Assembly: GCA_944358565.1 (NCBI GenBank)
Contig: CALVRK010000002.1
Location: 1-32,837, forward strand
Direction: 5' to 3'
Length of the DNA stretch: 32,837 bases
From: an uncultured Bacilli bacterium
Lineage (GTDB): Bacteria; Bacillota_I; Bacilli_A; RF39; UBA660
Below the pieces are notes generated by a model. That model saw nothing but the letters and a program-made list of their open reading frames with translations, did not search any database and was not told the DNA's origin. The position numbers and the translations under genes were made by a program. Shown here one piece after another: positions 9,652 to 18,982 of this stretch. Positions within the stretch are counted from its first letter, which is position 1. Each line of letters starts with the position of its first letter.

Positions 9652-10416
9652 ATGGAAAGAATAAATATTTTAATGATTGATGATAATATAAACCTAATAG
9701 AAATGGTTAAAGAGTATTTTAAAGATAATGAGGATGTAAATATTGCCTTTGAAGCCCATGATGGCGAAGAAGGAATTAATGAAATAACTAAAAATAAAGA
9801 TAAAATAGACTTAATAATCTTGGATTTAATTATGCCAAATAAAGACGGTATCTATGTCTTAAACGAAATGAAAAAACGTGGTATTAATAAGAAAGTAATC
9901 GTTGCGACTAGCTATAATGCCGCTGAAGTTATTAGAGAAGTATCTGAATTCGGAGTAAGTTATTATATTTTAAAACCTTTTGATTTGTCTGATTTAGAAA
10001 AGAGAATTTATGGTATTACTAAAAAAGAAAATAATAATAAAAACATCGACTTTTATACTAGTAACTTGCAAGTTGCTATTACTAAAATGCTTCATGAATT
10101 AGGTATACCTTCACATATAAAAGGTTATCAATATATCAGAGAAGCTGTTAATATAATTTTTGAAAATCCATCAGTAATTGGTGGAATTACTAAAGAGTTA
10201 TATCCAGAATTAGCTAAAAAGTTTAATACTACAACCTCTAGAGTTGAAAGAGCTATTAGACATGCTATCGAAGTAAGTTGGAATAGGGGAAACTTAGATT
10301 TTATGGAAGAAATATTTGGATATAGTGTTGATATTGATAAAGCCAAACCAACTAACTCCGAATTTATGGTGACAATTGCCGACAAATTAAGATTAGATTT
10401 TCATCAAGTAAACTAA
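9652..10416 (+). CDS. spo0A: Sporulation master regulator Spo0A
   Basis: Receiver domain (DLIILDLIMPNKDG) plus the Spo0A-specific C-terminal domain (HIKGYQYIREAV, SRVERAIRHAIEVSW). Confidence 0.9.
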   Translation: MERINILMIDDNINLIEMVKEYFKDNEDVNIAFEAHDGEEGINEITKNKDKIDLIILDLIMPNKDGIYVLNEMKKRGINKKVIVATSYNAAEVIREVSEFGVSYYILKPFDLSDLEKRIYGITKKENNNKNIDFYTSNLQVAITKMLHELGIPSHIKGYQYIREAVNIIFENPSVIGGITKELYPELAKKFNTTTSRVERAIRHAIEVSWNRGNLDFMEEIFGYSVDIDKAKPTNSEFMVTIADKLRLDFHQVN

Positions 10417-10862: not shown

Positions 10863-11336
10863 ATGAAAAAAAATGCATTTACTTTAGTTGAACTTTTGGC
10901 CGTTATTACTATTTTAGGAATTTTAGCTACTATTACTGTACCGATTGTTATAAATGTTTTTAACTCAGCATCAGAAAGTGCTTTTGAAGATGATGCTATG
11001 ACTTTATCTAAAGCCGCTGATAATTATTACACATCACTTACTTTAGAAAGTGATACTAAACTGCCGCTTTTAGTAACTTTTAATAGTGGAAAAGAAACTA
11101 ATAAATATAAAAACAACGTTAATAATGCTTGTGAAACATCTTCAGAAAGATTATTAGAATATAATGGGCAAACTCCTGATAGCGGTAATATATTTATCGA
11201 TAGTAATGGAGAAGTTACTTTAGCTATTTACGATAGACAATCTAAAAAATGCGCTATTAAAAATCCGGGTGATAAAACAGTCACCTTTACAGAAAAATCA
11301 GAAAGTGAATGTAAATTAACAAATAACCCTTGTTAA
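10863..11336 (+). CDS. Type IV prepilin-like protein (Ala at position -1)
   Basis: MKKNA|FTLVELLAVITILGILA. RBS ggagga (10847-10852) fits ATG 10863. Four Cys residues, including the C-terminal residue (..NNPC). Confidence 0.8.
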   Translation: MKKNAFTLVELLAVITILGILATITVPIVINVFNSASESAFEDDAMTLSKAADNYYTSLTLESDTKLPLLVTFNSGKETNKYKNNVNNACETSSERLLEYNGQTPDSGNIFIDSNGEVTLAIYDRQSKKCAIKNPGDKTVTFTEKSESECKLTNNPC

Positions 11337-11360
11337 CACATATAATGTGTTAACATTTTT
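11332..11360 (+). terminator. Rho-independent terminator ending the pilin operon
   Basis: Perfect 10-bp stem: gttaacacat (11332-11341) pairs with atgtgttaac (11345-11354), loop ata, followed by attttta. Confidence 0.7.
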
Positions 11361-11417
11361 ATAAAATTGCATAAAATAATAATATATTGCAGTTTTGGGA
11401 GATATTTTCTCTTAAAC

Positions 11418-11446
11418 TTGCAAAAAAGCATTAATAATGATAAAAT
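11418..11446 (+). promoter_or_regulatory. Candidate sigma-A promoter of the ATPase/RloB operon
   Basis: TTGCAA (11418-11423), 17-nt spacer, TAAAAT (11441-11446). RBS aaaggaaggg precedes ATG 11470. Confidence 0.45.
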
Positions 11447-11469
11447 ATGGCTAAAGGAAGGGAAAAATT

Positions 11470-12672
11470 ATGTTAATTCAATTTAAATTTAAAAATCATA
11501 AAAGCTTTTATGATGAAAATGTATTGGATTTAATGGCGACCAGTGAAAAAAGACATATTGAAACTACTGTTAATATTAATGGTAATAAAATTTTACCAGT
11601 AATAGCAATTCATGGAGCCAATGCTTCTGGAAAAAGTGGTATTCTTGAGGCTTTAGAGTTTATGTTTAAAACGATTAAAGAGTCTAGTCACATTGACATT
11701 AATCAAGACCTACAAGTAAATCCATTTGCTTTTTCTACCAAGTCGTTAGTTCAAAACAGTGAATATGAATTTTCTATTTGCTTAGGAGATTATGAATATA
11801 GATATGGATTTGCTATAAATAAAGATGGCTTTGATGAAGAGTGGCTTTATCAAAAAAAATTCGCCGCTAATACTAGAGTATCTCAAAAAATCATCTTTGA
11901 AAGATCTGAAGATAAAGTAGAATTTGGATCATCATATAAAAAATATAAGAAAATTTGGGATTTGTTTGGTAACGATAGTCCAAGTTCTAAAAAAATATTA
12001 ATCTTAAGTAATGTAGCAATTAAAGAAACAGATGGTGTTTTAAGACAAATTTATGATTATGTATGCAAATTCAATTTTAAAATTGAACATTTCTATAATA
12101 AGACGAGTATTGATATTTTAACTAAAGATAGTTCATTATATAATAAATTTCAAAAAATTATTAATGAATTTGATCCTTGTTTATTAGGTATCAAAATTGA
12201 TGAAATAAATTATGAAAATGGTGAAAAAAGATATGTTATTAATGGTATTCATAAAAATTTAGAAAATAACGTAATTCATTCTTTAATTCCTCTGCACAAA
12301 GAATCAGATGGAACAATTAAAATTTTTAATATTATGCCAACAATTTTAAAAAATCTAGAAGAAGGTGGATTATTGTGTATTGATGAATTAGATATAAAAT
12401 TTCACCCATTATTATTTAAAAAAATAGTTAATATGTATAAAAATAGAAAAATTAATAAAAATAATGCCCAATTAATCTATACTGCTCATTCGACATTTAT
12501 GTTTAATAATGCTGATTTAAGAAGAGACCAAATTTATTTAGTAGATAAAGATAAACTTGGAAAATCTCATTTATATTCATTATCTGAATTCAGAAATTTA
12601 AGAGCTGATTCAGATTATGAAAAAAAATATTTAACCGGCCAGTTTGGAGCAATTCCTTTTGAAGATGAGTAG
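11470..12672 (+). CDS. AAA_21/AAA_15-type (ABC-like) ATPase, AbiLi/RloA-like
   Basis: Walker A GANASGKS, Walker B LLCIDELD, and the QLIYTAHS...LRRDQIYLVDKD tail typical of COG1106-type ATPases. Confidence 0.8.
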   Translation: MLIQFKFKNHKSFYDENVLDLMATSEKRHIETTVNINGNKILPVIAIHGANASGKSGILEALEFMFKTIKESSHIDINQDLQVNPFAFSTKSLVQNSEYEFSICLGDYEYRYGFAINKDGFDEEWLYQKKFAANTRVSQKIIFERSEDKVEFGSSYKKYKKIWDLFGNDSPSSKKILILSNVAIKETDGVLRQIYDYVCKFNFKIEHFYNKTSIDILTKDSSLYNKFQKIINEFDPCLLGIKIDEINYENGEKRYVINGIHKNLENNVIHSLIPLHKESDGTIKIFNIMPTILKNLEEGGLLCIDELDIKFHPLLFKKIVNMYKNRKINKNNAQLIYTAHSTFMFNNADLRRDQIYLVDKDKLGKSHLYSLSEFRNLRADSDYEKKYLTGQFGAIPFEDE

Positions 12673-12680
12673 GTGACATT

Positions 12681-13373
12681 ATGGGAAGTGACAACCTATT
12701 TGTTAGAAGAAAAAATGAACGAAAAAAAAGAAAAGAAAACATTTCCAAGCAAAAATCAAGTAACTGGCTTATAGTATGTGAGGGGACTAAAACAGAACCA
12801 AATTATTTCATTGAAGCAGTAAATGAAATTAACAAAAATATTGAAGATAAATATAAATTAAAAGTAAATGTTATAGGAACTGGTAAAAATACAGTATCTT
12901 TAGTAAAATCAGTAGAAGATTTGCAAGTTGAAATAGACAAATATAATAATAGATTAATTCCATACAGTAAAATATTTGTCGTGTTTGATAAAGATGATTT
13001 TAGTGATAAAAATTTTGATGAAGCTATTAATATGTGTCTAACAAATGGATATATTCCATTATGGTCTAACCAGGCTATTGAATTTTGGTTTCTATTACAT
13101 TTCAATTATATTGATGGAAAAATAGATAGAAAAATGTATGCCACCAAAATAAATGAATATTTTAAAAAGAAAGGATTAAAATATACTTATCATAAAAATG
13201 ATTCTAAAATATATTCTAAACTTTGCGAACATGGCTCTTTAAATAAAGCTAAAACAAATGCTAAAAAAATACATTTAACTCATATTAAAGATAAACCATC
13301 GCAGTCAGAAAGCTGTACATCAGTATATAAATTTTTTGAGGCAGTAGACGAAAGATTAGATGAACTAAAATAA
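12681..13373 (+). CDS. RloB-like (Toprim-related) protein, AbiLii-like
   Basis: WLIVCEGTKTEPNYF, IFVVFDKDDF and WSNQAIEFWFLLHF are the hallmark RloB motifs. It lies 8 nt after the ATPase gene. Confidence 0.8.
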   Translation: MGSDNLFVRRKNERKKRKENISKQKSSNWLIVCEGTKTEPNYFIEAVNEINKNIEDKYKLKVNVIGTGKNTVSLVKSVEDLQVEIDKYNNRLIPYSKIFVVFDKDDFSDKNFDEAINMCLTNGYIPLWSNQAIEFWFLLHFNYIDGKIDRKMYATKINEYFKKKGLKYTYHKNDSKIYSKLCEHGSLNKAKTNAKKIHLTHIKDKPSQSESCTSVYKFFEAVDERLDELK

Positions 13374-13382
13374 TATTCCTAC

Positions 13383-13412
13383 AAAAGCATACTAATATTA
13401 AGTATGTTTTTG
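13383..13412 (+). terminator. Hairpin terminator after the RloB-like gene
   Basis: aaaagcatact pairs with agtatgttttt, loop aatatta. Confidence 0.45.
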
Positions 13413-13465
13413 CTTGCTTATTAAACTAAATTAGTATATAATCATTTAAGAAAAACGGTGATAAC

Positions 13466-14440
13466 ATGAAGTGGAAAATTGGAAATATTGAAATAAAAAA
13501 TCAAGTTGTTTTAGCCCCTATGGCTGGTATTAGTAACAGTAGTTTTAGAAGAATTGCTAAAGAAATGGGCTGTGGTTTAATAGTCGCTGAAATGGTTAGT
13601 GATAAAGCTATTTGTTATGGTAGTAAAAAAACATTAGATATGCTTTATATGACTGACTTTGAAAGGCCTCTTTCCCAGCAAATCTTTGGTAGTGATAAAG
13701 ACTCTTTTACTAAAGCTGCTAAATATATTGAGGAAAATATGCATCCAGATATTATTGATATTAATATGGGATGTCCAGTCCCTAAGGTTGCTGTTTCTGC
13801 AGAGGCTGGTAGTGCCTTATTAAAAAATCCAAATAAAGTATATGATATAGTTAAGGCAGTTGTTGACATTGTAAATGTTCCAGTTACTGTTAAAATAAGA
13901 AGTGGATGGGATAGTAATCATATAAATGCTGTTGAAATTGCTAAAATCTGTGAAAAAGCTGGAGCTAGTGCTATCACTATTCATGGCAGAACAAGAGCTC
14001 AAGGTTATAGTGGAAAAGCTGATTGGAATATTATTAAAAAAGTTAAAGAAAATGTCAGTATTCCTGTAATTGGTAATGGTGATATAAAATCTCCTTTAGA
14101 TGCTAAAAAAATGTTAGATGAAACAGGCTGTGATGCTGTTATGATTGCTCGTGGTGCTTTAGGCAATCCTTGGATCATTAAAAATACTATTCATTATTTA
14201 GAAAAAGGTGAACTTTTACCAGATCCGACTAAAGAAGATAAAATAAATATGATTAAAAAACATTTAGATTATCTTTTAGAGACAAAACCTGAAAAAGTAG
14301 CTCTTCTTGAAATGCGAACAGAAGCGAGTTATTATTTAAAGGGACTGAAAGGAGCTTCTCCTTATAAAATAAAATTGTTTCAAACAAATACTAAAGAAGA
14401 CTTTTTAAAAGTTATTGATGAATTTTCTAAAATGACCTAG
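13466..14440 (+). CDS. dusB: tRNA-dihydrouridine synthase B
   Basis: 324 aa with LAPMAGISN, DINMGCP and IHGRTR motifs. Confidence 0.9.
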   Translation: MKWKIGNIEIKNQVVLAPMAGISNSSFRRIAKEMGCGLIVAEMVSDKAICYGSKKTLDMLYMTDFERPLSQQIFGSDKDSFTKAAKYIEENMHPDIIDINMGCPVPKVAVSAEAGSALLKNPNKVYDIVKAVVDIVNVPVTVKIRSGWDSNHINAVEIAKICEKAGASAITIHGRTRAQGYSGKADWNIIKKVKENVSIPVIGNGDIKSPLDAKKMLDETGCDAVMIARGALGNPWIIKNTIHYLEKGELLPDPTKEDKINMIKKHLDYLLETKPEKVALLEMRTEASYYLKGLKGASPYKIKLFQTNTKEDFLKVIDEFSKMT

Positions 14441-14814: not shown

Positions 14815-17800
14815 ATGCATAGAAGTAAAAGAAAAAGAAATATTATAATATTTAGTTTAGTGGGCGTATTACTTTGTATGGTAGTAGGATATGCGGCCTT
14901 TCAAACTAGATTAGAAATAAAAGGAACAAGTAAAGTAACTAGTAACTGGGATATTAGAATAACTAATGTCACAGATGGCACTTCAACAGGTCAAGCTGAA
15001 AATGCGATTAAACCATCTTATACAGCATTAACTGGCAACTATGGAGGCAAATCTTTATGATAAAGGTGATGCCATGGAATATGATGTCACTATCGAAAAT
15101 AAAGGAACTTTGGATGCTAAATTAAATGATATTTTAACTAATTTAGAAAATTCAAACAATGAAGCAGTATTAATAACATTCTCGGGTTATACTAAAGGTG
15201 AAATATTAAAATCAGGAGAAAGTAAATTAGTCCATGTAAAAATAGAATATAATCCCGAATATGAAGGTGGGGAAACATCTAGTGAAGTTGAAATAGTTTT
15301 TGATTATATTCAAGATGATAAAAGTGAAGATACTCCAACGACATATTTATTAACTTATGATTATAAGACCAATGGAGGTGAACGAGTTGATAGCGAAGGA
15401 GAATATTTAGCTAGTGGAAGTAATGTAGATTTAACTAATATCGCTTATAAAACAGGTTATAGATTTGTAGGATGGAATACAGATAAAGATGCTAAGGTAG
15501 GAATGACTAGTTATCAAATGAAAGAAGGACCGGCAACTTTATATGCTATTTATTCAAAAGATTTAAAAGTAACTTATGAAAAAGGAAATAATATCCAAAG
15601 TATAGGAAAAATAGAAGATCAATGTACTATTTATAATAATGAAGCATCATGTGAAGTAACTTTGCCATCTATTACACCAAATAATGGGTATAGTGTAGAT
15701 GGATGGTATAATGGTAATAATAAAATAGGGAATTCAAATGATAAATATAAAGTGACAGCTAATATTACTTTAACTTCAAAAGTAAAACAAAATATATATA
15801 CAGTAACATATGACTATAAAACAAACGGTGGAACAAATTCTACTAAAACAACAGATAAAGTGGGTTATGGAGAAAATGTTGATTTAACACCAACAGCTAC
15901 CAAAGAAGGTTGGACATTTGTAGGATGGAATACAGATAAAGATGCGACAACTAAGTTATCATCATTAACTATGGGTAATAGTAATGTTACTTTGTATGCG
16001 ATATATAGAAAAGAAGCTAAACAGGTAACTATAACCTTTAATAAAAATGGAGCTACAAGTCAAACGCCAAATGGAGGTTCAGCTAATAGTAATACTACTA
16101 TAACTCAAAGCTGTACTATTCCAGCAGTTTATAATAATGCTACGCAAGAGAGTAGCTGTAATATAACAAGTCCAACAATTAATGCATCAAGCACAACTCC
16201 AACAGTAGTTGGATATAATACTAGTGCCCAAGCTACTTCTTCATCATGGAATCAAAATACAAGTAAAGCCGTAAGTAGTGATGCAACATATTATGCAATA
16301 ACTAGAAGTGCAACTCAATTAACGGCTTCATTTAATGCTAATGGAGCTACTATTGGTGCAACTAATGCTTCATGTTATAGATATAATGGAGAAGCAAGTT
16401 GTAATGTCACTACTCCAAGTATAACTAGAAGTGGTTTTACTATAACTGGTTGGGGAACAAGTAGCTCGGCGACGACCGCAGAAATAAATGCTAATTCATT
16501 GCTTAATTTAACAGAAAACAAAACATATTATGCAGTAACGAGTAAAGTGGTAACAGTTACATATAATAAGGATTCAACAGTATCAGCTATTGGAAGATCA
16601 GAGGATACTTGTACAATTCAAAATAGTGCAACAAATTGTGGGGTAACTTTACCAAGTATTACAGTTGATGATACTCATATTTTAGATGGATGGTATAAAG
16701 GTTCTACTAAAATTGGAAATCCTAATGCCAAATATAATGTTAGTGACAATATTACTTTGACGGCTAAAGGTAAGGCTGATACTACGGCGCCTACTATTAC
16801 TTTTACTCCAAATAATTATGCTACTTATGTTGCCGATGGTTTAGATGTTGAAGTTACTGTTAAAGATGAAAAACCATTAAGGTTTAGTAATGTAAGTTAT
16901 GGTTGGAGTACTTCAGCAACTACTGCTCCATCAGAATATACTAGTATCGATGTTGATTCTAGAACAAATGAAACATCATTTATTATTCCAGGTGAGTCTA
17001 ATTCAAATATATCAGGCATTTATTATTTATGGTTAAATGGTACTATTTCTGATGCTGCTGGTAATAATTCTAAAACCCCTGCTATTAGTGGTGCTTTCTA
17101 TTTTGATAATGAAAAACCTACTGTTAGTATTACATCTACAAAAACAGGAAATGATGTTAGTGTAAAAGCAATTGCAAATGACGGTTATAGTGGTATTAAT
17201 AAATATTATTTTAGTAAAGATGGTGGTCAAAATTATATAGAAACTACTAATGATAATTATACTTTTATCGATTTAGAGCCAGGTAATTATATAATAACTG
17301 TTTATGTTACTGATAAGGCAGGTAACCAATCAGAGTTGGCTACGAAAACTGAAGGAATAGGTGCAGAAGATTTCTGTAAAGGTAATGGTATTGATGATTT
17401 TGGTGATTGTTTAATTGCAACTGAGGCTAAAGAGTCTAATATCAATACAGCCAAATCAATTATTAAAGGAAAAGGTACAACTGATGTTACAAAAGCTAGT
17501 CCAAGTGTGGTATATAAAGAAGTGCATTCAGCATCTACTACTACTGTAACTAGTAGTAGATCAGAGATATATGTTGGAACCGGTTATACATTTGATTCAT
17601 CGAAAGGTATGTATACTTTATCTAACTGGCAATTGCGAGATACGGAAAGCATTGATTTTAAATCTAGTAATTATTATGTTACTGCTAATTTTGATATAAA
17701 TTCTACAATATCAGGCTGGACAAGTTCTGGTACAATTTATAAAATTGTTAATATGAAAACAACAACTGCGGCATCTGGTCAAAAAACTTATACATATACA

Positions 17801-18982
17801 GTTTATAAGTATAATATTGCTCCAATATCATACAATACTGCAGATGTGGGAATGTTTTCTGATGTAGATGATCAAGGTGATTCGTTTTATTATCGCGGTT
17901 CTATCAGTAATAATTATGTTAAATTTGCCAATAAGATATGGCGAGTTATTAGGGTAAATGGTGACGGTAGTGTTCGAATGATCTATGATGGTACTTCAGC
18001 ACATAGTAATGGTGAAAAGAGTGATAATAGACAAGTCGGAACATCAAGATTTAATTCGTATTATGCCGATAACACATATGCGGGATATATGTATGGAAAT
18101 CCGGATGATTTTGGAGCAACGAAACCAAGAGATACATTTTTATGGGAAAAAAGTGATATTCAACCTGATACAACGTATTATTATGGGACAAGCTATACCT
18201 TGTCGGGCCGGTCTTATAAATTAGCTGGGACAATTACTTCTGGTAAATATAATTCTAGTAGAGTTGGAAAATATACTTGTTTTAGCACTTCTAAAACAGG
18301 CACTTGTCAAAGATTGGCTTTAATTAAGGAATATAAATCTGAAACTACTGCTTTGTCTCAAGTTTTGGCATATGGAAGTCAAAATAAAACTGCAGCGAGA
18401 AGTAATGTTACAGATAGTAGTATAAAAACGTATTTAGATGATTGGTATGTTGATAACTTTACTACAGCGCAGCGTAATAAATTATCTAAAAGTGCTGTTT
18501 TCTGTAATTCACGTGTTGTTTATCCTAACTTAACAGAGCCAGATAATTATAATAATTATGCCTATGGATTAAATCCAACAAGTTATTCTATTGGAAAAAT
18601 AAGAAGTTTATCTACGTATGGTGCGACATATAGCTGTGAAAATATTGATAGTTTTAGTGTAAATACGACATATGGTAATGGTGATTTGACTTATCCGATA
18701 GGTCTAATTAGTTTAGATGAAGCATTAAGATCCGGTTTAACTGCGGGTGTTTCAAATACGCTTAATTATTTGTATACTGGTAATGGTTATTGGACTATGA
18801 CACCTGCTGGTATAGGTTCATCTGCATATATGACAATTATTCATATAGGCATAAGTGGCGCTCTAGGTAATTATCAATCTAGTATTTCTTCTGTAGGTGT
18901 AAAACCAGTTATTAATATAACCACTTCGTCAATTAGCTATTCTGGAAATGGTACACAAGATGATCCTTATGTATTATCATAG
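14815..18982 (+). pseudogene. Giant mosaic surface protein (about 1388 aa if repaired), paralogue B of the GYAAF-signal family, split by a +1 frameshift near 15034-15035
   Basis: Track ORFs 14815..15060 and 15041..18982 overlap. Removing one G of the GG at 15034-15035 gives ..SYTALTATMEANLYDKGDAMEYDVTIENKGTLDA. That matches ..TTATFKTNLVSPSDSMTYTVTVANEG in paralogue A and ..LSATFNANLTTPGSSVTYDVTV in paralogue C. RBS aagaggtgg precedes ATG 14815. Confidence 0.7.
15344..16771 (+). repeat. Six tandem repeats of about 75 aa (Listeria-Bacteroides/Flg_new-like) inside the giant gene
   Basis: Units recur as Y.(V/L)TYDYKTNGG...GY.FVGWNTDKDA...LYAIY and a Cys-pair variant C..N..ASC.VTLPSIT..G..(V/L)DGWY. 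The 30-nt stretch atttgtaggatggaatacagataaagatgc occurs twice (about 15470 and 15910). Confidence 0.6.

Follow-up and report, generated by a model that had tools for sequence, protein, structure and literature searches.

The phage-resistance system AbiL has been known since 1999 and is found in every catalogue of defence systems. Its founding copy, carried by the dairy plasmid pND861 of Lactococcus lactis, was obtained on the strength of a phage-resistance phenotype (Deng et al. 1999, according to the summary in PMC13064643), and the lactococcal system is reported to act at a stage later than phage transcription (table in PMC13064643). AbiL has been grouped with the systems that combine an ABC ATPase with a TOPRIM protein, and its mechanism is given as unknown (PMC11464382; PMC13064643). 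Here, we describe a two-gene cassette in the DNA of an uncultured Bacilli bacterium (contig CALVRK010000002.1 of assembly GCA_944358565.1, positions 1 to 32,837; by the window, we mean these 32,837 nucleotides in full) that agrees with the founding AbiL and with the PADLOC and DefenseFinder models of it in gene families, gene order and bicistronic layout. All of the sequence-level hallmarks of AbiL were found, i.e., an AbiLi ATPase, an RloB partner, and an adjacent, same-strand operon in which the ATPase gene comes first. The likeness is one of genes alone, the copy is chromosomal and from a gut organism, whereas the founding one is plasmid-borne, and it must be distant in sequence from its lactococcal counterpart, since a tblastn search of plasmids returned no lactococcal plasmid at E ≤ 1e-5. 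On balance, we consider it likely that the cassette belongs, as a chromosomal representative, to the two-gene anti-phage systems of the AbiL family, and that it pairs a putative sensor ATPase with what is, by analogy, a nuclease, in a Bacilli bacterium of the chicken gut. The pair is recognisable as AbiL by a standard PADLOC or DefenseFinder run, and what we add, namely an exact map of the insertion, its polymorphism at the level of strains, a hotspot with alternative cargo and a conserved, cassette-borne palindrome, leaves that classification unchanged.

Several other systems invite comparison. PARIS, a toxin-antitoxin-like sensor-effector pair that has been placed with AbiL in one AAA_15/21-powered superfamily (PMC11464382), likewise splits an ABC ATPase and a small metal-dependent nuclease between two genes (AriA/AriB), the ATPase gene being first, but its effector is AriB/DUF4435, whereas that of the cassette is RloB (PF13707). 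Membership of PARIS was rejected, as neither PADLOC nor Pfam gave an AriB or DUF4435 match for the second protein; the first matched the PADLOC AriA model at 6.5e-25, which is a generic AAA_21-type model, and AriA structures were not in the top 50 fold matches of its predicted structure. The superposition of AbiLii on AriB is reported to be poor (PMC13064643), and neither the trigger of PARIS (Ocr) nor its target (tRNA-Lys) is to be assumed for the cassette. In the OLD nucleases (P2 Old, class 1/2) and Gabija GajA, an ABC ATPase is again combined with Toprim-type catalytic residues, and alignment sets the EG-x-TE motif of RloB against EGKTE in P2 Old; however, a single polypeptide carries both the ATPase and the Toprim part in those proteins, and for Gabija the GajB helicase is required as well, whereas the cassette has two open reading frames (ORFs) and no helicase, and the spacing from the glutamate to DxD is about 69 residues in AbiLii versus about 55 in P2 Old. 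The NetFlax pair AAA(D29)/RloB-like(D44) of Clostridium algidicarnis, also from a Firmicute, has the same two domains, and it is by these that it is likened to the cassette; the study of it reported no phage phenotype.

The same two protein families also occur together in Campylobacter as RloA and RloB, embedded in type I hsd operons, and since it is from such genes that Pfam took the name of its RloB family, the pair might be thought of as a restriction-modification accessory that works only with restriction genes. One homologous cassette (L143) does lie near a Dam-type methyltransferase. The cassette of the window, however, is autonomous: the pair moves alone and with its own promoter, no restriction-modification domain was found in any ORF of the 32.8-kb window, and hsd, methyltransferase and restriction genes are absent from the window and from the surroundings of most homologous cassettes. 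We regard an accessory role of this kind as exceedingly improbable.

The ATPase and RloB proteins

A preliminary description of the window, made from its letters and ORFs, had put forward an ATPase-RloB pair of AbiL type, and in this it proved sound. The two ORFs, of 400 and 230 amino acids, are present with 8 nt between them on the same strand, as are all of the motifs then named: GANASGKS (residue 49), LLCIDELD (301), YTAHS (337) and LRRDQIYLVDKD (350) in AbiLi, and WLIVCEGTKTEPNYF (29), VVFDKDDF (100) and WSNQAIEFWFLLHF (128) in AbiLii. Confirmation of the families was obtained via Pfam, in which AbiLi matched AAA_21 (E 1e-26, 95 bits, cut-off 27) and AbiLii matched RloB over its full length and well above the cut-off (E 4e-38, 132 versus 31.5 bits), and via PADLOC, in which the AbiLi (E 7e-78, 260 bits) and AbiLii (E 4.5e-26) models were clearly the best matches of the respective proteins. 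The score of AbiLi against AAA_15 was just below the cut-off, and a search of NCBIfam gave no specific family for the two proteins. The 8-nt gap points to co-transcription of the genes and, probably, to coupled translation. Their adjacency, with the ATPase first, is preserved in more than 20 homologous loci, and homologues also keep the gap with the second ribosome-binding site over the stop codon. Wherever the ATPase reached 50% identity or more and enough DNA followed it, an RloB gene stood 2-20 nt 3′ of the ATPase gene. Small contigs inside both genes were also found in two chicken-gut runs labelled RNA-Seq; one of them, of about 95% identity, spans the gene junction (12574-13072) and lends weak support to co-transcription, since such contigs are the product of an assembler and may stem from carried-over DNA.

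Homologues of the AbiLi type of ATPase are abundant (more than 6,257 in 90% clusters), and in 41 of 63-93% identity the Walker A (G49-K55), signature (S279/G281), Walker B (D305-E306), D-loop (D308) and H-loop (H340) residues were invariant. When the AlphaFold model of AbiLi (pLDDT 77) was compared with the Protein Data Bank (PDB) by Foldseek, there were 46 matches at E ≤ 0.001, which included the retron type I-A ATPase (1.9e-8), Rad50, SMC1, SbcC, PtuA and GajA, down to 2e-4, at modest TM-scores of 0.3-0.44. AbiLi is an intact ABC ATPase of the Rad50/SMC/PtuA/GajA type. Its C-terminal 59 residues (342-400, window 12493-12669) are poorly modelled, with a pLDDT below 50, yet near-invariant among homologues, and they may fold only within an oligomer or on a partner.

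RloB homologues number 2,870 in 90% clusters, and an exhaustive search produced 2,587 clusters at the 50% level. In 125 diverse homologues (29-70% identity), every one of which matched the PADLOC AbiLii model, E39, Y42, D103, D105, E134 and K172 were invariant, and E34, G35, T38 and H140 were nearly so, with E34 kept in at least 90%. The predicted structure of AbiLii (pLDDT 91.6) has a four-strand alpha/beta core and a C-terminal helical domain (151-229) that carries K172; in the core, E34 and E39 follow strand 1, D103 and D105 close strand 3, and E134 follows strand 4. A glutamate after strand 1 together with a DxD that ends strand 3 is reportedly the arrangement by which Aravind, Leipe and Koonin defined Toprim domains in 1998, and, judged by sequence and model, the acidic cluster of AbiLii (E34, E39, D103, D105, E134) appears Toprim-like. 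HHpred has also been found to relate RloB to OLD_TOPRIM (PMC10440598), and in our hhalign comparison of the RloB profile with P2 Old, EGTKTEPNYF was placed on EGKTETNVLY within the Pfam TOPRIM domain of Old.

A number of results weigh against the reading of the pair as a sensor ATPase and nuclease of the AbiL family, and several of them concern this Toprim link. The hhalign probability was only 7% against P2 Old and 3% against a three-sequence alignment (P2 Old, GajA and Thermus OLD), in the same register both times. Foldseek comparison of the AbiLii model with the PDB gave no match at E ≤ 0.001, the best Toprim protein being DnaG (4edg, rank 38, E 0.12), and sequence and profile searches of the PDB (HMMER) gave chance matches only (calmodulin, cadherin). 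Just one of the 125 RloB homologues touched Pfam OLD-like_TOPRIM (3e-3); single homologues touched the RT-Toprim, mad4 and GajA models. Among BFVD models, the sole significant match was an RloB-like myovirus protein (2.5e-13, TM 0.74), with Toprim proteins only among the insignificant ones, and the C-terminal Toprim half of P2 Old, used as a query for homologues, found five fragments only, with no match in a tblastn search of the region against plasmids. The arrangement of the putative catalytic residues of RloB, as read from sequence and model, fits a link to established Toprim domains, then, and the profile and fold similarity to them is not significant. The remaining points concern toxicity and surroundings. 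In Escherichia coli, the RloB-type protein of the C. algidicarnis pair is toxic and is neutralised by its ATPase (PMC10440598), and AbiLii of Fusobacterium nucleatum is toxic, but the AbiLi of that organism did not neutralise it and AbiLii of L. lactis was not toxic (PMC3985639). The cassette also lies outside any classical defence island, the rest of the window being housekeeping (ClpP, GAPDH, PGK, TIM, Spo0A, two pilins, DusB, a large surface protein, a two-component system, DnaE, RecX, PrsA and ArgRS), and the system is rare on plasmids (7 distant matches) and phages (1-2 records).

Insertion at the pilin-dusB junction

Among 80 related dusB loci that were compared (single loci are designated L001, L004, etc.), those with the gene order tpiA-spo0A-pilin-pilin-dusB carried the pair only in L001 and L013; it was absent from L004-L012, and the site between pil2 and dusB was empty in L004-L009. 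In L004, the Spo0A protein of which is 99% identical, the pilin stop (TGTTAA) leads directly into ACATACTAATATTAAGTATGTTTTT... and then the leader of dusB; window 13387-13468 reads identically, and it is this match that defines the extent of the insert (Table 1). That the pair was an inserted cassette between unrelated genes had been proposed from the window alone, and the comparison of relatives, in which a cassette of 2,050 bp is variably present and is missing from near-identical strains, agrees with it. The hairpins that were thought to bracket it fared less well. The upstream one exists, at 11331-11355 with 11 pairs and not, as first given, at 11332-11360 with 10 bp; it overlaps the pil2 stop codon (TAA, 11334-11336) and is present in the window and L001 and absent from L013 and the empty sites. 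The downstream one, taken to be a terminator belonging to the cassette, is instead the resident pilin terminator, because this hairpin comes straight after the pilin stop in the empty site of L004; in the window it now ends the abiL operon, and the dusB promoter region follows.

Table 1. Coordinates of the abiL cassette, its control elements and the flanking hairpins in the window
Feature	Position	Strand	Description
Upstream hairpin TGTTAACAC-ATATAAT-GTGTTAACA	11331-11355	+	11 pairs, loop 3, then TTTTT; likely pil2 terminator
Inserted segment, about 2,050 bp	11337-13386	+	Measured against L004, the closest relative, in which the pil2-dusB site is empty
Upstream box CATAAAAT	11370-11377	+	Conserved, -10-like; 5′ limit of conservation between cassettes
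Palindrome TTTTGGGAGA-TATTT-TCTCTTAAAC	11393-11417	.	25 bp, directly abuts the -35 box; candidate operator
Promoter	11418-11446	+	-35 TTGCAA (11418-11423), 17-nt spacer, extended -10 TGATAAAAT (11438-11446); conserved in cassettes
Ribosome-binding site of abiLi, AAGGAAGGG	11454-11462	+	7 nt 5′ of the ATG
abiLi	11470-12672	+	ORF, 400 aa, AAA_21-family ABC-type ATPase
Ribosome-binding site of abiLii, AGGTGA	12671-12676	+	Overlaps the abiLi stop codon
abiLii	12681-13373	+	ORF, 230 aa, RloB-family protein
Downstream hairpin	13382-13412	+	Native pil2 terminator, pushed about 2 kb downstream by the insertion

The polymorphism is sharpest between L001 and L006, the flanks of which are 97.5-99.9% identical in DNA with the cassette in L001 only. 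In a comparison of the window with L001, identity is 93-94% in the cassette and 74-88% in the flanking genes, and as the identity of the cassette exceeds that of its flanks, its transfer would be more recent than the split of the hosts. In L013, the cassette is located after the pilin terminator, unlike the arrangement in the window, so that the two represent either separate gains or a later rearrangement at the same spot. The metagenome runs that hold the cassette are mostly from chicken gut, and in one of these (X1) independent contigs cross both junctions with zero differences, which shows that the insertion is not an assembly chimera; no joint of 11336 to 13387, as would be expected of an excision product, was found in that run. 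No recombinase was found in the inserted segment and neither terminal inverted repeats nor a target-site duplication beyond chance at the ends of the cassette. An 8-bp self-complementary word, TGTTAACA, occurs twice, 17 nt apart, with both copies in the left hairpin and the first holding the pilin stop codon. Since TGTTAAACA stands at this place in the empty site, the left junction may have been directed by a short stretch of homology. The GC content of the cassette is 24.6% versus 28.9%, with third-position GC like that of host genes, and composition is a weak sign of foreign origin. In L005 (7600-7990), L009 (4480-4720) and L001 (9950-10230), an extra element of about 300 bp with a long inverted repeat (GCCGAGTGTCTACC ... 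GGTAGACATTCGGC) separates the pilin terminator from dusB; the window does not have it, and its copy in L005 also has a 30-aa hydrophobic ORF. Rfam gave no match in the window, nor in L005 and L009 with the element included.

Homologous pairs of 50-72% identity had a different neighbourhood in every lineage examined, always with the ATPase followed by RloB, and the pair is thus inherited together and mobile between unrelated chromosomal sites. A prophage or plasmid origin was considered and rejected, as only 2 remote matches were found among 2.9 million viral contigs and plasmids held only the 7 distant matches. The mobility bears on another explanation, by which the pair would be a housekeeping ATPase-nuclease of the RecF/SbcCD/OLD type that repairs or maintains the host chromosome. 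The resemblance of the AbiLi model to Rad50, SbcC, SMC and RecF would suit such a role, as would the RecG and UvrD helicases among the neighbours of the pair in some other lineages, but its presence varies between strains with near-identical flanks, its location differs in every lineage, its specific HMM matches are AbiLi and AbiLii rather than repair families, and it has neither a coiled-coil arm nor an Mre11-type partner. We hold a repair function to be very unlikely.

The gap between the pilin genes and dusB is a small hotspot, which holds other defence-type cargo in related genomes. At the same junction, L011 (7082-8011) encodes a 309-aa protein with an N-terminal winged-helix domain (AbiEi-like, 1e-4) and a TIR-like or nucleoside 2-deoxyribosyltransferase-like domain that matches the PADLOC "Effector TIR" model at 1.1e-15, making it a candidate single-gene defence system. 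L010 (6849-7727, minus strand) has a 292-aa PD-(D/E)XK_2 "nuclease family transposase" protein (Pfam 6e-12), which may be relevant to the exchange of cargo at the junction, and L019 (7444-7848) and L020 (minus strand) have a 134-aa multi-pass membrane protein with a faint match to the PADLOC "2TM effector" model (0.004).

The insertion of the cassette by itself amid housekeeping genes could also be expected of a selfish toxin-antitoxin (addiction) module, in which AbiLii would be the toxin and AbiLi its neutraliser, and which would be kept because its loss is harmful, with no real protection from phages. The C. algidicarnis pair did come out of its tests as toxin and antitoxin (PMC10440598), as did F. 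nucleatum AbiLii as toxic (PMC3985639), and the compact bicistronic layout of the cassette, with a palindrome close to its promoter, is typical of autoregulated type II toxin-antitoxin operons. Against this, the clean empty sites in near-identical strains imply that loss is tolerated, the junction holds other defence-type cargo in relatives, and the founding AbiL was, as far as it is summarised in PMC13064643, isolated by phage resistance (Deng et al. 1999). Toxin-antitoxin behaviour and defence can, moreover, coexist, as they do in PARIS. Addiction as the whole explanation is therefore judged unlikely, and an anti-phage role for the cassette is preferred.

Two further observations concern the host and the neighbouring genes. 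The Spo0A orthologue (window 9652-10416; L004-L024) adjoins type IV pilin genes and has 83-100% protein identity across L004-L013 and L019-L024, in a lineage with complete genomes of only 1.3-1.5 Mb that are labelled variously Bacilli, Tenericutes and Mollicutes. Downstream, an 81-aa ORF with a signal-anchor-like N-terminus (14815-15060) overlaps by 20 nt, in another frame, the beginning of the gene of a 1313-aa surface protein (15041-18982) that carries Listeria-Bacteroides repeats, and the two may be one gene split by a frameshift.

The control region upstream of abiLi

The 140 nt upstream of abiLi were aligned for 23-26 distinct cassettes, with ATPase identities down to 34%, and a conserved order emerged: the CATAAAAT box, the 25-bp palindrome, the -35 box, a 17-nt spacer, an extended -10 (TGnTAnnAT) and the ribosome-binding site. 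Conservation ends 5′ of the upstream box, which is thereby taken as the left edge of the mobile unit, and the box itself may provide an additional promoter or binding site. The TTGCAA-17-TAAAAT promoter that had been proposed for the pair is present, with an upstream TG, and its position and sequence are conserved in 23 homologous cassettes, with the T, G, T, A, A and T of TGnTAnnAT invariant or nearly so. It is this conservation on which the promoter rests, as promoter-like matches are common in an AT-rich window: the site alone is a 9/12 match, and 42 such sites were found in the 29% GC window versus 29.6 expected.

The palindrome, for which the consensus of 26 distinct cassettes in unrelated contexts was TTTTRRGAGA-N5-TCTCYYAAAA, has invariant GAG/CTC cores 10 bp apart, and its centre lies 36-39 nt before the -10 hexamer in 19 of the 26, a distance at which the right arm touches the -35 box. 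Its symmetry has been kept through change (AGGAGA/TCTCCT, AAGAGG/CCTCTT, AAGAT/ATCTT), with 86.9% of cells paired and changes on both sides in 8 of 10 pairs. On each of five measures, the observed value was reached by none of 500 shuffles, and slid registers were only 36-60% paired, the register having been chosen from the same sequences that were tested, though the invariant core anchors it. The window has a single copy of the motif, against an expectation of 0.01, and in 148 loci (about 1.6 Mb, for the most part from related genomes without the cassette) it was found only upstream of abiLi; it was absent upstream of remote ATPases at ≤38% identity. This confinement to abiLi upstream regions makes a general host regulon unlikely and a regulator encoded by the cassette the simplest explanation, and from its sequence we consider the palindrome a candidate cassette-borne operator.

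An intrinsic terminator was rejected as an identity for the palindrome, as no U-tract follows it on either strand. A conserved, cassette-specific palindrome that abuts the -35 box is what would be looked for in operator-based autoregulation, and an RNA hairpin fold can be computed for it too. The palindrome might then act as a nucleic-acid hairpin, either as an RNA leader element transcribed from the box at 11370-11377 or as an insulator against read-through, and not as a protein operator. Computed as RNA, it has folding energies of -5 to -15 kcal/mol and z-scores as low as -6.4, the covariation of its arms fits a stem, and a promoter-like site of better score (TTAACA-16-TAAAAT, 10/12) ends at 11377, which could put the palindrome in a 5′ leader. 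However, its mismatches have no strand preference (GT/TG 16, AC/CA 18, other 16) and both half-sites share the consensus TTTTRRGAGA, and these two features point to a symmetric site in DNA, bound by a dimeric protein, rather than to an RNA stem, which would be strand-specific. The exact 10-bp separation of the invariant cores, the near-fixed distance to the -10 box and the missing U-tract also speak against a hairpin, and the fold of L013 is no better than that of shuffled sequence (z -0.7). A hairpin is, in our estimation, a rather doubtful explanation.

If the palindrome is instead an operator, a possible ligand is found within the cassette. The N-terminal tail of AbiLii (residues 1-28, window 12681-12764), MGSDNLFxKRxxERxKRKENxxKQKSSN, carries a net charge of about +5; its length is constant in 108 of 110 close homologues, with R14 and R17 invariant. 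Remote RloB proteins, which likewise lack the upstream palindrome, do not conserve the tail. To our knowledge, neither the upstream palindrome nor the basic N-terminal tail has so far been described for AbiL. We tentatively suggest that the operator may be bound by an AbiL protein, the prime candidate being the arginine-rich AbiLii tail (R10, R14, R17), in which case this large AbiL subfamily of gut Firmicutes would function as a toxin-antitoxin-like, autoregulated sensor-effector system; the tail as the palindrome-binding regulator is a conjecture. In L013 (7269-7330), an A-rich tract near abiLii codon 14 is 5 nt shorter than that of the window, which gives a frameshift in the basic tail; it could be an assembly error, decay or slippage, and an internal ATG could still yield a shortened product.

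A proposed mechanism and its relevance

The mechanism we propose draws on PARIS, on the OLD and Gabija nucleases, and on the published toxicity tests of RloB/ATPase pairs. An oligomer of AbiLi would hold the putative AbiLii nuclease inactive and sense infection, and a phage product, or a state induced by the phage, would alter the ATPase so that AbiLii is released or activated. AbiLii would then cleave nucleic acid in a metal-dependent reaction at E34, D103 and D105, with E39 and E134 binding a second metal. Its target would more likely be RNA of the translation apparatus than DNA, a preference that follows from the reported action of the lactococcal system after phage transcription. Cleavage would halt the multiplication of the phage at the cost of the infected cell, and the palindrome beside the -35 box would serve as an operator by which the cassette controls its own expression, as in type II toxin-antitoxin operons.

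If the palindrome is indeed bound by an AbiL protein, occupancy of the promoter would report the state of the ATPase-nuclease complex, and the co-variation of half-sites between lineages would reflect co-evolution of the operator with its cassette-encoded regulator. The upstream box, palindrome, promoter and basic tail offer a concrete and testable handle on the control of AbiL expression, and the near-identical strains with and without the cassette, together with the base-level map of the insertion, show the gain and loss of a recombinase-free defence cassette in the core chromosome of a gut bacterium with a reduced genome.

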